A DNA stretch of 63,976 nucleotides, filler included, from Dugesia japonica (taxonomy: Eukaryota): assembly GCA_001938525.1 (NCBI GenBank). It is 7 parts of 7 records of this genome, joined end to end, with 100 filler letters (N's around TTAATTAATTAA, not from the genome) between each part and the next. Parts side by side here need not be neighbours in the genome. Positions count along the whole stretch, not along the records: positions 9,458 to 18,347 come from MQRL01609631.1; 6 more parts are not named here. One strand, written 5' to 3'. Below are positions 11,300 to 18,347 of this stretch, in pieces. The number at the start of each line of letters is the position of its first letter. Positions within the stretch are counted from its first letter, which is position 1. The notes beneath the pieces were generated by a model that saw nothing but the letters and a program-made list of their open reading frames with translations, ran no database searches and was not told where the DNA came from. The position numbers and the translations under genes are program-made.

Positions 11300-11670
11300 C
11301 AAAGGTCGAATTTTATATCCACATTTGTCGAAAAATATCGAAAATTGCGAGCAAGATATGTAAGAGATCTTAACAATTTTGAAGGAATTAACGAAAATGA
11401 AGTTTCCATTAGAAAAATTGGAAAACGTAATGAGAAAATGTATCTCGAATTTTGGTACTGGAGTAAAGCATATTACTGATATGAGACTCGTTATGGCGAA
11501 AATTGGTCAAGAGATGCAAAGAAATTCTTGGTTAGAAGACATATGTGTAGTTATTGTTAATGAAAATGACGATAAACCTACGAGAAATATTAGTGCCTAC
11601 AGTACTGTTAAAGAACAAACTCAAACGATCAGCGAACTTAAAGGATGGAAAAACGTTAAATTGAAATTTG
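11300..11670 (+). pseudogene. Divergent Bcl-2-like domain, copy A, directly upstream of the env signal peptide
   Basis: ILYPHL...ISELKGWKNV with the same 111-codon LYP-to-GW spacing and the same position relative to env as copy B; one in-frame stop at 11361. Confidence 0.45.
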
Positions 11671-11771
11671 CTAATCAAATATTGAATGATATAGATACTT
11701 ATATTGTGGATATTAGAATGAAAAAGCAAGCCAAGCAAAGAAACACTCTATTTTCAACGAAATTTGGGGGC

Positions 11772-13180
11772 ATCTTACCATGGTTGTTTATAATGATCAT
11801 TATGATTAGCCTGGTTAATAACACATCGTCACTAACCACTTATGACTGTTCACATACCGAATTAGGAAAGTTTTATTCATTAGTCGATGTGGCGGAATGT
11901 CAAGGAGCTTATCCATTGAAACTGAAAACTGAGGAAAATGTACCATATTATATTTATCGGCAGTCAGGTTTTCGTCGGACAATGGTTTGCGAATGTATAG
12001 TGAAACGAACAACTTTTATCTTCTATTGCATAAAGTGGAGTCATTCGTCATTAAAAGATTTTAAATCAATACCAAGGTCAGTGGATATCACACCTGAAAA
12101 TTGTAAATCGGCTTTTCAAACAAAGGAAATTAAAATTAATGCGGAGATTAAACTATCTGCGAAAAAGAATTTTATTATCAGAGAATCATTTACCGTTAAA
12201 GGAAAACTTTTGGAGAATGGAGATTTTGAGGGTGAATCTTAAAAAATTGTGGAAAGTATTGTTGATAAAACAATGATTGTTGAAGAGTATTCAACAGAAT
12301 TACGAGAATTTGAAGGGACGTTTGACGAAGTAACAGGACAAAGGCAAACGCACCCGTTTTGTGACATGTATAGTACTTGTTGTCACACAGGAGAATCTAT
12401 GCCTGTGTATAAAGTAAAAGTAAAGAAGTGTAATTTAGTTCAATTGAAAAGGACAGAATTTACTGAAATAGCTGGGGAACATATTAAAGTCAAACTGGAT
12501 GTTTCTATAGTTCCTAAAAATGAACGTGGTAGACAAATGTCACCTGTCGAAAGAAACCCAACACCTATTGTGCTTGTAACATCAGTAAAAGAGGAAGGAA
12601 TGAGATTTATAAGAAAAGAAACTGTCATAAAATGCGGTTAAACAGTATACGAAACAAATTATAAAGGTGTATATGTGTCCAAATCAAGAATTGAAGATGC
12701 TAAGGAGAATATACATATTCCGGAAATCAAATTAGCGCAATATTTTAATAATAATATAGTCTTTATTTTTCATTTTCAAATTGGAACAATATCAAATTTA
12801 TATCGGGAAATAATATTAAATGATTGTAAATTGAACAGAGAAATTTTACAAAGTCGGATGACAATGGTAATGACAAACCCAAATGTGGTTGCACCCATGC
12901 TTATTGATGAGAATGGGATATTTGCTAGAGTCTTGGGGGAAGCATTGTATAGGTATAAATGTAAAGAGATACCGGTTAAAATCATAAAATATGATGAATG
13001 TACGAACAAATTGCCAGTTAATGTAGATGGAACATTGAGATTTATGGAACCTATAACAAGAGTGTTAATAGATAAAGATTCAAAGCCAAAGAAATTAGAA
13101 TGCAATCGGGTGTTAGCACCTTTAAACAAATTAGCTCCTGATACTTGGATATCATTTCCAGGCAGAAAACAATTAGAGCC
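11772..13180 (+). pseudogene. env: Envelope glycoprotein, chuvirus-G / herpes gB-like class III fusogen, copy A (C-terminally truncated)
   Basis: Signal peptide ILPWLFIMIIMISLVNNTSS, then LTTYDCS...YSLVDVAEC, ECIVKRTTFIFYCIKWSHSS, NDCKLNREIL and GIFARVLGEALYRYKCKEIPVK...ECTNKLPV...FMEPITRVL...C; single frame with stops at 12240 and 12639. Confidence 0.8.
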
Positions 13181-14910: not shown

Positions 14911-15012
14911 CCTCAACCATCTCATGAAAATGTAACTAGAGTAATCAGAATTGTAAGGGATCAGTTAAATGAGATTGGGAATGGATGGATACGTGGGCCT
15001 CACCGAAATTCA

Positions 15013-15434
15013 TGGCAAGCATTAACAACTACAATACTCTTATTATTCTTAATGATGGGCAGAAGTGAAGCCATATTAGCATATGACTGCGATAGTATGC
15101 AAGTTGGGAAGAAAGTATTCTCATTAGTAGATACTGAAGAATGTCCGGACGCAAACCCGGAGAAAACCTCACTCCGTAATAATTCCATTTATCACTTGTA
15201 TCAGGAGTCAGATTATTATAAGGCCCAAGTATAAGAATGTATAGTAACAGTAAAGACGTATATATTTCATTGTGGTTATCACAGTTATACCTCGATAATT
15301 GACCCCGGAACGGTAAAACACCCCGTACATTTAACGGGCCAACAATGTGACGAAGGGTTTACAACCGGTAAAAGTACCATCAAACATGGAAATCAAGTTG
15401 TCGCTAAAAAGGGACATGTAATAGACCAACCGAT
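15013..15434 (+). pseudogene. env: Envelope glycoprotein, chuvirus-G/gB-like, copy B (N-terminal ~140 aa only)
   Basis: Signal peptide WQALTTTILLLFLMMGRSEA, then ILAYDCDS...FSLVDTEECP, YHLYQES, and after one stop ECIVTVKTYIFHCGYHSYTS...QC; colinear with copy A; cut off by the inverted element C. Confidence 0.8.
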
Positions 15435-18347
15435 AGCATACTGCTAGTTCTTGTGCTTGAATTCGATTCGGTTCCGTATTTGTCGATATAATCTTTTAAT
15501 AATGCATGGACCCGTTCGTTTAATTTTTTACTCGAATTGGTTTTTGGTTTCATCTTTTCGATTATTCCATTCCACCCTCCGACCTTTACTAATATCGGCT
15601 CAATTTGATCATTGGTTATATCGACTATTTACGATTACCCAATTGAAATTTCAGTCCTGGCCTACAACGAGCCACTGCTATTTGCGTTTGTTTTACTAAA
15701 TATGCAAATACCACTAGTAATTTTGGAATTGTCGGGCAATTCAACAATACCCCTTGTACTTCTTTCTCTATTGTTTCTCGATCCTTGAGGAGTTTATGTT
15801 TGGCAACTGGTAATTTTGCTATGATTGGTTCTAATATCGCTGCTAATTGTTTGTTCTCTGTTGACAAAATTGTATTTCCAATCCATAGTTTAAAATCTGG
15901 ATACAGCGCTAGCAATACCTGGTGTACTCGTTTCACGGTTGATAACGCGTGTGGTTCTAATTCTCCATTATTTCCGACGATAATTCGGCCATTTGTTCAT
16001 CTCTTGTTGGTTTTCGTCTCGTTGTACCACTTGCTATTGCTCCTTTTTGTCGACCTCTGGGCTTTTTATCCATCTACGTCTCCGCATCACGCATCACTCG
16101 TTCATGTGTCTCGATTTCAGTTGTATCATCCGTGTTATCCGTTGTCATTTTCCTTTCTTCAAACATTGCAGCTAGTAGTGTTATTTCGTCGGCAATTTTG
16201 ACCAATCTAATTGATATATCCTCGTCCTCCAGATCCAAGTCCACTTGATTTGGATTAAATTTTCCCGACTTCTATGGTTTCATTAGTATTTCCGACTCTG
16301 ACATAGTCGCTGGTTCCATTTGGGTCATTTGAATCTCTTTATCATCCACCTCATCTTCAAGGTCTAAAATCTGTTCGACTATTTCATCTTCTGTGTTATT
16401 TTCTGTTGTTGACTCCTTGACTGGCGATTTTCTCGGTTGTCATCTTGATTTAACAACTACTTCACTCGTGTTACTCGATGTCATTGGTTGTACAAATGAT
16501 TTTATTAATGTCTGACTTGATCCTAGTCCCGAATGCAATTTATTTTTAATCTTCTTAGCTGGTAATTTTCTTCTGATCAATCGTTTACTACCTTCCGGTT
16601 TGATGTACATTTTATTGTCTATCTTTTGTCGGATATCCAACGTTCCGATGATATCCTTATTCAATAATTCCCGATTGTTCAATAGTAGTACATATGGCAA
16701 CTCGTATGGTATTTTAGATTTCATCTGCTCTACTGTCTCGTAAGCCAAGTTCGAGATTCTCGTTTCATAACATCTGGTTCTACGATTATGAAGCTAAATC
16801 TAAAGGGTAATACTTTAGCTTGTTCGAATTTTCTCCATCTTGATATTAGCAGTTTAAATTTTTTCGGCCTCCATTTGCATTCTTCTTTACATCTGGATAT
16901 TTCATAAGTCAATGATCTCAACTCCTCAATTGATACGTCACTCTGCAATAATTGATCCCCTAGATGCTCCACACTAGTTTTATTTATAATTTTCTCTTGA
17001 ATTTTTGCTATAAATTGATCTACCATATTGGCAGAATCTCCACAACACTTTTTCGATTTTCCGGTCATTACCACTACCATTTCTTGTGATCTACTCAACT
17101 CTTGATTTGATTTGTATTGTCGATGTAATCTCGGTCTCTGTTGTATTACCGCTATCATTTCTCGCTTTGCTAATTCATCATCATTATCGGCATAATATCG
17201 TATTGCTTTTTTACACAAATTCTCTCTAATTGACTTTAACGTATACGGGTTTCCCTCATTTTCGCCACTCGCAAAAATATAGACATTCATCATATGGCCT
17301 GGCCATATGCCTGATCTCTTTACTGGATACTCATCATGATCCTCTGTGATCTCTCCTCCACAATAAACCACAATATCCTCTCGTTTAGTAATTGGTGTAT
17401 TCTCCTTTCCTCTCGCTGTTTGTTTATTCAAATGTTTGATAATTTTCTTTATTAATTTATTCCAATTTGTCGTCATTTTAATATCGAACTCTTTACTTGA
17501 TTCATCCGGAAAATGTACTGTTACTTGAACATCTTGTTTTGATATGCTATCTGCATAGGTTATTGTTAACGTATGTATGAGCGTATACAACGCTTTTCCT
17601 CCAATCATACACAATTGGTTCAATCTGTTTATTATCTCTTGAATATTCAATTCCATCATTTGACTGTAATTCTCGTAAATGGTTAACGCCATTTTTGCGG
17701 TAGTTCGCTTCCAACATTACCACGGTTTGTTTTCGTTTTCGATTTCGGCTACTCGTTCAATTTCCTCGTCAGTTACGATTCTCAAATATTCCATTTTATC
17801 TATTTTGTTTACATACACATTTCTCATTTTTGTTCTAATTAGACTAATTGATTGTAATTCAAACTTTTTCGGTTTTCCGTCATCTAATTCCAACGTTAAT
17901 TCAGTAATCTCTCCTGGTCTCAATCGGAACTCAATCACATGTTGATCCCTTTTATTCAACTTGTCCCTTTTTATAATTACATAATCACACATAATCCGAT
18001 ACTTCTCAAATGTTTTCTCTAAAGTTAATTTACTTAATATTGCTCGCAACTCACCCACTCAGGTAGTTTCAAGTTTCTCAACTGTTTTCGTCTTCATGGC
18101 CATGCACAAGTTATCATCCATTGTAAGATAGTGGATTTTTACCCCAAAATCCGATCCAACGGTTGCTGCTACTATCATCTACTAATACTCTTTAATTAAT
18201 TCAGACCAGTTCTTCCGATGTTCCCATAATATATAATAATGATAGTGTGCCTCCCAAACTACATTCAGCATTATCCAATACGTTTGTTTCGGAATTAATT
18301 CCTTCCTCTCTAATGTGATACCCACGTATTTGTTTATTGCAGCTAAA
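15435..18347 (-). mobile_element. Retroelement polyprotein segment C (inverted paralog of B): unknown domains, two Ubl-like domains, acidic linker, AT-hook-like motif, Bcl-2-like domain
   Basis: LQSDVSIEELRSL vs LQQDLAVEDLRKL; KWRPKKFKLLISRWRK vs VWYPIQFNKILVKWRK; KFNPNQVDLDLEDED vs KYDPSKVDIDEED; LLALYPDFKLWIG vs LLMLYPELKIWIG; IVDITNDQIEPILVKVGGW vs IVDLMQNKIAPLIKQHGGW. Confidence 0.8.

Follow-up and report, generated by a model that had tools for sequence, protein, structure and literature searches.

The DNA analysed here (the window, 63,976 nt) is AT-rich, eukaryotic sequence from Dugesia japonica (GCA_001938525.1) in which seven contigs were joined end to end, so the adjacency of neighbouring contigs in the genome is unproven. 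The contig at 9458-18347 (MQRL01609631.1) holds pieces of three diverged elements, designated A, B and C, with A and B on the plus strand and C on the minus strand. These represent three diverged families and not copies of one element (blastn gave no match among the three). An inversion junction near 15443 (15440-15445) joins B to C and cuts both the env of B and the region after the C domain. The main finding is a Bcl-2 fold in the leader of the envelope protein (Env) of gB-type long terminal repeat (LTR) retroelements or retrovirus-like elements. In B, and in a protein from outside the window (P0003), the domain is followed in frame by a basic linker, a signal-like hydrophobic helix and a gB-type Env, and the order in A is the same save for one stop.

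The original prediction had linked three divergent copies of a domain through the distance between an LYP and a GW motif, and its coordinates proved exact: 333 nt from L 11313 to W 11646 in A and from L 14545 to W 14878 in B, both on the plus strand, and 332 nt from L 15906 to W 15574 on the minus strand in C, including the shift of frame in C (Table 1). The in-frame stop within the A domain had been missed. The six frames of the window contain 13 LYP and 23 GW motifs, which form only three same-frame pairs within 130 aa; these include A and B, both at 111, and the pairing in A and B exceeds chance.

The fold of copy B and its relatives

Copy B, which is intact, was modelled with AlphaFold2 (AF2) from an alignment of B, the two pieces of C and P0003. 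The model (predicted local distance difference test (pLDDT) 81.5, predicted template modelling score (pTM) 0.81) has helices at residues 5-16, 18-24, 31-45, 61-68, 75-96, 108-123 and 127-134, with low confidence in the groove loop at residues 52-58, and forms a bundle whose helices surround a central, hydrophobic helix (helix 5), the arrangement by which a Bcl-2 fold is recognized. The best structural match among 48161 representative chains was Hydra HyBcl-2-4 (Z 12.1, root-mean-square deviation 2.8, 126 aligned), a score to be read with the caveat that Z below ~13 may be generic for helical bundles. Every one of the best 35 rows was a Bcl-2 fold, and no unrelated structure came above Z 5.1; canonical pro-survival and cellular Bcl-2 proteins were nearest, at Z 10-12, and the NF-kB group lay at Z 5.7-7.5. 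Bcl-2 proteins also ranked first when the model was compared by Foldseek, and viral Bcl-2 homologs led in a viral library. A model from the single sequence was poor (pLDDT 47), but Bcl-2 entries still headed its weak Foldseek list.

At the level of sequence, B by itself gave weak Bcl-2 signals. Pfam Bcl-2 (PF00452) matched the whole open reading frame (ORF) of B at E 0.013, the domain alone at E 0.0046 (17.9 bits) and P0003 at E 0.012 (16.5 bits). B alone found Bcl-xL in the PDB at E ~1.5; with a profile that combined B, P0003 and both pieces of C, Bcl-xL was matched at E 1.2e-4. The Bcl-2 homology (BH) motif BH2, a GW followed by a hydrophobic residue, is present in B, C and P0003 in alignment with the BH2 of Bcl-xL, and in A at the level of the motif. 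The canonical BH1 motif is NWGR, with a conserved Arg; compared with Bcl-xL, B has the Gly-Arg without the Trp, and C and P0003 have Lys at the position of the Arg.

Several results count against this assignment, in addition to the caveat on Z. BH1 is degenerate, Gly-Arg being kept in B only. The Pfam cut-off for PF00452 is 31.4 bits, above the scores of both B and P0003, and neither the C pieces nor A gave a match. Foldseek returned no match for B at E<=0.001, the best being 0.017. The Atlas features of B gave 0.92 to the E1B-19K/Bcl-2 cluster at a recognition of 1760, which is under the level where the score counts as strong, and an Atlas search with P0003 returned no Bcl-2 match. On the model, the B domain, and with it that of C, nevertheless almost certainly adopts a Bcl-2 fold, and for B, C and P0003 taken together the assignment is strong.

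The relationship of B to C and P0003 was evident from alignment. B and C aligned locally with a score of 206 (z 35), their hydrophobicity profiles were correlated (r +0.58), and identical residues numbered 49/135 between B and C, 33/134 between B and P0003 and 25/133 between C and P0003, which bears out the earlier claim that the domain is old in the family. Overall identity is 13-36% among the four sequences analysed as the family (A, B, C and P0003) and 19-36% among the B, C and P0003 families. Identities between B and C at the three codon positions were 44, 59 and 40 of 90; the second positions are the most conserved, a pattern that fits long purifying selection. Judged by sequence, C and P0003 are homologs of B and are Bcl-2-like through that homology.

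A search of a representative protein library gave three matches, among which P0003 was the sole true relative; P0001 and P0002 were dropped as family members, being repeat proteins with short matches. P0003 was likewise the sole match among 1775 proteins of near length. Among longer proteins no homologs were found, either with B only (231 candidates) or with a profile of B and P0003 (0/7999), and none of 35 pattern matches in a scan of prokaryotic genomes was confirmed. When the six frames of the window were scanned with the profile (1824 chunks), only B and C were recovered, and neither A nor a fourth copy was among the best 25 rows.

Copy A and the LYP-to-GW spacing

The claim of a third Bcl-2-like domain in A stood in part: the anchor blocks lie at the family spacing, but the interior and the local profile match are not significant. 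For the LYP block as for the BH2 block, the highest-scoring match in A lay at offset 0, and only 2/4286 and 1/4285 decoy windows respectively scored as high. The two blocks were also tested jointly within a slot of 248 aa defined by position, between the zinc-knuckle region and the signal helix, and the observed score was reached in 0/2000 shuffles at spacing tolerances of 0, 5 and 10 and in 2/2000 at 20; as the blocks were built around anchors flagged in the original prediction, the test is partly post hoc. A glocal profile gave z 3.2-3.5 (p 0.002-0.006), a value equalled in 1/175 forward and 0/175 reversed decoys. A gapped alignment of A with B held 29/121 identities and matched 8/16 family-invariant columns, figures that were optimized by the aligner and carry no null.

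A body of results speaks against membership. The local alignment of A with B was at chance (p 0.76), and in register the interior shared 6/106 identities, with a score under the shuffle mean, and a hydrophobicity correlation of -0.12. The local match of A to a three-sequence hidden Markov model (HMM) was not significant (3.9 bits, reached in 175/3000 shuffles, p ~0.06; reversed A scored 3.3). The hhalign probability was 3.6%, shuffles of the interior alone with fixed anchors gave p 0.06-0.19, and the blocks for helices 4, 5 and 6 fell at inconsistent offsets. A Pfam scan of the A domain gave no match at E<=0.1.

These results would suit a reading in which only B, C and P0003 are Bcl-2-like and A is an unrelated helical spacer between gag and env whose two motifs match by chance; the absence of a helix 5 counterpart where one is expected, and an upstream context unlike that of B and C, point the same way. 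Such a spacer appears rather unlikely, given the joint score of the anchor blocks at offset 0, above all 2000 shuffles at tolerance 10, the glocal profile, the gapped identities and invariant columns shared with B, and an env start as near to that of B as the env start of P0003 is. Copy A is probably a diverged member of the family.

The statement that the domain is length-constrained was not supported. P0003 has 109 residues from LYP to GW, not 111, owing to three small indels, so that the four sequences point to a range of 109-111 with indels inside, and the gapped alignment of A with B between the anchors needs 16 deleted and 16 inserted columns. The exact 333 nt of A is therefore best read as compensation inside a compact helical domain that keeps its approximate size, and the equality of B and C calls for no special explanation since the two are ordinary gap-free homologs. 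A strict length constraint was thus rejected, P0003 being shorter and A and B not being homologous in register; equal nucleotide spacing is a valid pointer to A, is otherwise of little weight and is no evidence of length constraint. The same slot before env was borne out for A and B, with 65 and 68 aa from the W to the first YDC motif of Env (51 aa in P0003); C is cut at the inversion junction. Overall, the observation was partly confirmed and its interpretation partly supported.

Architecture of the carrier elements

The features of the three elements are listed in Table 1.

Table 1. Coordinates of features assigned to elements A, B and C
Feature	Position	Strand	Remarks
A, gag capsid fragment	10355..10711	+	Pfam Retrotrans_gag E 2.1e-7, over its cut-off
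A, gag zinc knuckle(s) and acidic linker	10686..11270	+	zf-CCHC E 2.2e-6; shares its frame with domain A and env
A, probable divergent Bcl-2-like domain	11271..11684	+	LYP 11313, GW ending 11648; stop 11361-11363
A, internal signal/anchor helix after basic linker	11772..11816	+	15-residue Kyte-Doolittle mean 2.76; putative signal function
A, gB-type (Monjiviricetes-like) env, truncated, with stops	11832..13170	+	PF24664 E 3.6e-17, 6.3e-26
B, uncharacterized upstream region	13221..14330	+	Homologous to upstream region of C
B, counterpart of BH3-like motif, without Asp	14178..14213	+	Aligned to that of C; loose pattern only
B, intact domain of predicted Bcl-2 fold	14500..14916	+	LYP 14545, GW ending 14880; inside ORF 14239-15234
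B, internal signal/anchor helix, likely cleavage region	15019..15072	+	Best 15-mer hydropathy 1.81; same position in P0003; putative cleavage
B, gB-type env start	15073..15443	+	PF24664 E 9.3e-6; stop 15232-15234; cut at inversion junction
C, Bcl-2-like domain	15536..15948	-	Frame change between 15636 and 15629; 49/135 identical to B
C, BH3-like motif, end of acidic region upstream	16182..16217	-	Only strict-pattern match in window's six frames
C, uncharacterized upstream coding region	16086..18100	-	Homologous to that of B; weak RA-like Pfam match E 0.008-0.05

In element A a single frame (10686-13667) takes in the zinc knuckle, the domain, the signal helix and env, and is interrupted by stops at 11361, 12240 and 12639. 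Its gag matches Retrotrans_gag and PNMA, and no Pao-specific family was found by Pfam. The hydrophobic segment of P0003 has a 15-mer mean of 2.83, beside those of A and B in the table. A gB-type env (PF24664) was found in A, B and P0003; for C, neither signal helix nor env is present in the window. The env start of B is identical to that of A at 29/73 residues (40%), and that of P0003 to B at 35%. At ~13170-13260 the truncated env of A continues in frame into the region upstream of B, producing a chimeric ORF (12642-13667).

Gag lies directly upstream of env in A only, and B and C are preceded by an unclassified region. No LTR pair was found in contig 9458-18347, where A, B and C are truncated, and the window holds no gag, pol or LTR beside B or C, which tells against a retroelement for these two; they were assigned to one through the homology of env to that of A. 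The only pol seen is in contig 28329-38246, where a second element (28329-32500, plus strand) has an env tail followed by protease (PR), reverse transcriptase (RT), RNase H (RH) and integrase (IN), that is, env before pol. The env leader of this element lies beyond the contig end, and tblastx gave no link between its contig and that of A, B and C. Nematode endogenous retroviruses of the order gag-env-pol have reportedly been described by Sacco et al. in 2022. The carrier of the domain is probably an LTR retroelement. Downstream of the integrase of the second element, amid long unclassified ORFs (32500-37076), a C3HC4 RING finger at 35721-36098 (plus strand, Pfam E 1.1e-6) is possibly another captured accessory domain.

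The regions upstream of B and C are homologous, with local scores of 126 and 118, each over all 500 shuffles. That of B had no confident Pfam or PDB match, and the region was not found in A, whose domain follows the gag zinc knuckles. Ubiquitin-like or beta-grasp domains, proposed by eye at 13551-13787 (plus strand) and at 16793-16581 and 17548-17225 (both minus strand), were rejected, with no PDB support and only the weak RA-like Pfam match for the last. The BH3-like motif upstream of C had a P of 0.003 in shuffles of 1105 aa, for a pattern written after the motif was noticed. Prediction of a complex between B and its own BH3-like segment scored 0.01 and was not counted as evidence.

Function, rival explanations and known systems

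We propose that a lineage of envelope-carrying LTR retroelements with a gB-type Env gained an intronless Bcl-2 domain long ago, which was then kept directly before Env in the same frame. As signal peptides generally work, the domain would be made on the cytosolic side, and the hydrophobic helix would be the internal signal peptide of Env, sending Env into the endoplasmic reticulum (ER). Cleavage by signal peptidase would leave the domain on the ER membrane, with the helix as a C-terminal anchor of the Bcl-2 type. The domain may well, at even odds, be a pro-survival viral Bcl-2 that binds the host's pro-death BH3 proteins and thereby lets cells survive while they make a fusogen and particles. 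Taken as a whole this is the best explanation, with a probability of about 0.5. Against it stands the linker to the hydrophobic anchor, which spans ~40-50 aa; in cellular Bcl-2 proteins it is generally shorter. Several poxviral Bcl-2 folds, moreover, act without inhibiting apoptosis (PMC7022251). A C-terminal hydrophobic tail targets Bcl-2 proteins to membranes (PMC7022251, PMC5691641), nearly all apoptosis-inhibiting viral Bcl-2 proteins carry membrane anchors (PMC5691641) and retroviral Env signal peptides may function after cleavage (PMC2649029).

The chief rival on function is that the fold is real but repurposed, working without blocking apoptosis as an interaction module, which might for instance inhibit innate signalling or autophagy, or might tie Env to the particle in a matrix-like way. 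The poxviral proteins A46, A52, B14 and K7 provide a precedent, as they act on NF-kB (PMC7022251), and the degenerate BH1, the low confidence of the groove loop and the fixed position at the Env leader are in keeping with it; but B lies closest in structure to canonical pro-survival and cellular proteins, not to the NF-kB group, and the GW of BH2 is kept in 4/4 sequences, which leaves repurposing somewhat unlikely. It is more improbable that the source of B and C is a virus other than a retrovirus, chuvirus-like or a small DNA virus, that integrated beside a gypsy element, with Bcl-2 as an ordinary viral gene. PF24664 is a glycoprotein family of negative-strand RNA viruses, the viral structure library includes an adintovirus Bcl2, and neither B nor C has gag, pol or LTR attached, their upstream region being unclassified. 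Against this, the gag-linked env of A shares 40% identity with the env start of B, gB-type env occurs widely among Ty3/gypsy elements (PMC13524379), and nucleoprotein, RNA-dependent RNA polymerase (RdRp) and DNA-polymerase families were absent among the 28 ORFs scanned with Pfam. Least credible is a single capture of a host Bcl-2 gene that persists as a relic with no function. In this window A and C are broken and any function is putative, but the decay extends to the whole elements and their env, the domain keeps its frame with Env in families of only 19-36% identity, and second codon positions are the most conserved.

A pro-survival domain would resemble the known viral Bcl-2 homologs, which include adenovirus E1B-19K, Epstein-Barr virus (EBV) BHRF1, Kaposi's sarcoma-associated herpesvirus (KSHV) KsBcl-2, the A179L protein of African swine fever virus (ASFV) and poxvirus M11L/F1L. 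Like B these have a Bcl-2 fold at 10-19% identity (BHRF1 and A179L match B at Z 11.4 and 10.8), and they have degenerate BH motifs and a C-terminal hydrophobic segment in common with the present domain. They are separate genes, whereas here an Env precursor carries the domain as its leader, and in the reviews consulted all come from DNA viruses (PMC7022251, PMC5691641), whereas the carrier here is apparently reverse-transcribing. The gB-type errantiviruses of Chary and Hayashi (PMC13524379) have, like A, a retrotransposon gag and then a PF24664 env. Their order in nematodes, bryozoans and flatworms, GAG-ENV-POL, matches the env tail and PR-RT-RH-IN of contig 28329-38246 (PMC13524379); they differ from B and C, in which the unclassified region stands in place of a recognizable gag. 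No Bcl-2 domain is mentioned in the text or seven supplementary files of that work.

Other invertebrate elements offer partial parallels. The Anakin elements of mosquitoes (PMC7642597) likewise have a chuvirus-like glycoprotein inside an LTR retroelement, but on a BEL/Pao backbone, and 'Bcl' is absent from the main text. Bdelloid LTR retrotransposons with GDSL and DEDDy ORF3 (PMC5408684) likewise carry a captured accessory domain; their products are enzymes from a separate ORF, and 'Bcl' and 'apopto' are absent from the main text. The Env signal peptides of HERV-K(HML-2) and mouse mammary tumour virus (MMTV) are functional proteins freed from the Env N-terminus by cleavage, as proposed here, but are nucleolar and of ~13-14 kDa, where the present product would be a folded Bcl-2 domain (PMC2649029). 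'Bcl' is also absent from the text of a preprint (bioRxiv 10.64898/2026.03.22.711591), its supplements not being covered. No earlier description was found in the literature searched on Bcl-2 and retroelements; subscription journals and repeat-database annotations were outside this coverage, so prior notice is possible.

Bcl-2 mimicry is documented for DNA viruses (PMC7022251), and the same in retrotransposon-type elements would mean that they too manage host cell death. The Env leader would also add a new route to a tail-anchored protein. The Bcl-2 fold stays in frame with Env across families down to 19% identity, and the intact copy B makes its role testable. Accessory domains that score under Pfam cut-offs may be hidden in the Env leaders of the 1512 errantiviruses that have been catalogued (PMC13524379). 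More tentatively, and with the balance of odds against it, retrovirus-like elements of invertebrates might, as an entire clade that takes in gag-env-pol types like A, encode a Bcl-2 apoptosis inhibitor as the leader of the Env polyprotein with the Env signal peptide as its tail anchor, and the upstream BH3-like motif might be a built-in partner or switch in the B and C families. No Bcl-2 mimic would then have preceded it in a reverse-transcribing element, and envelope-carrying retrotransposons would seem to be restricted by the death of host cells.

Elsewhere in the window, the contigs are separated by linkers at 9358-9457, 18348-18447, 28229-28328, 38247-38346, 46920-47019 and 55688-55787, each of them artificial and composed of 44 N, a 12-base spacer with stops in six frames and 44 N. 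A near-perfect duplication of 218 nt at 21846-22362 spans an N gap and is possibly an assembly artefact. A palindromic element of 200 nt lies at 2457-2654, and an exon of an astacin (M12A) metalloprotease at 43424-43771 on the minus strand (Pfam E 5.2e-23), a sign of an animal source, probably belongs to a host gene.

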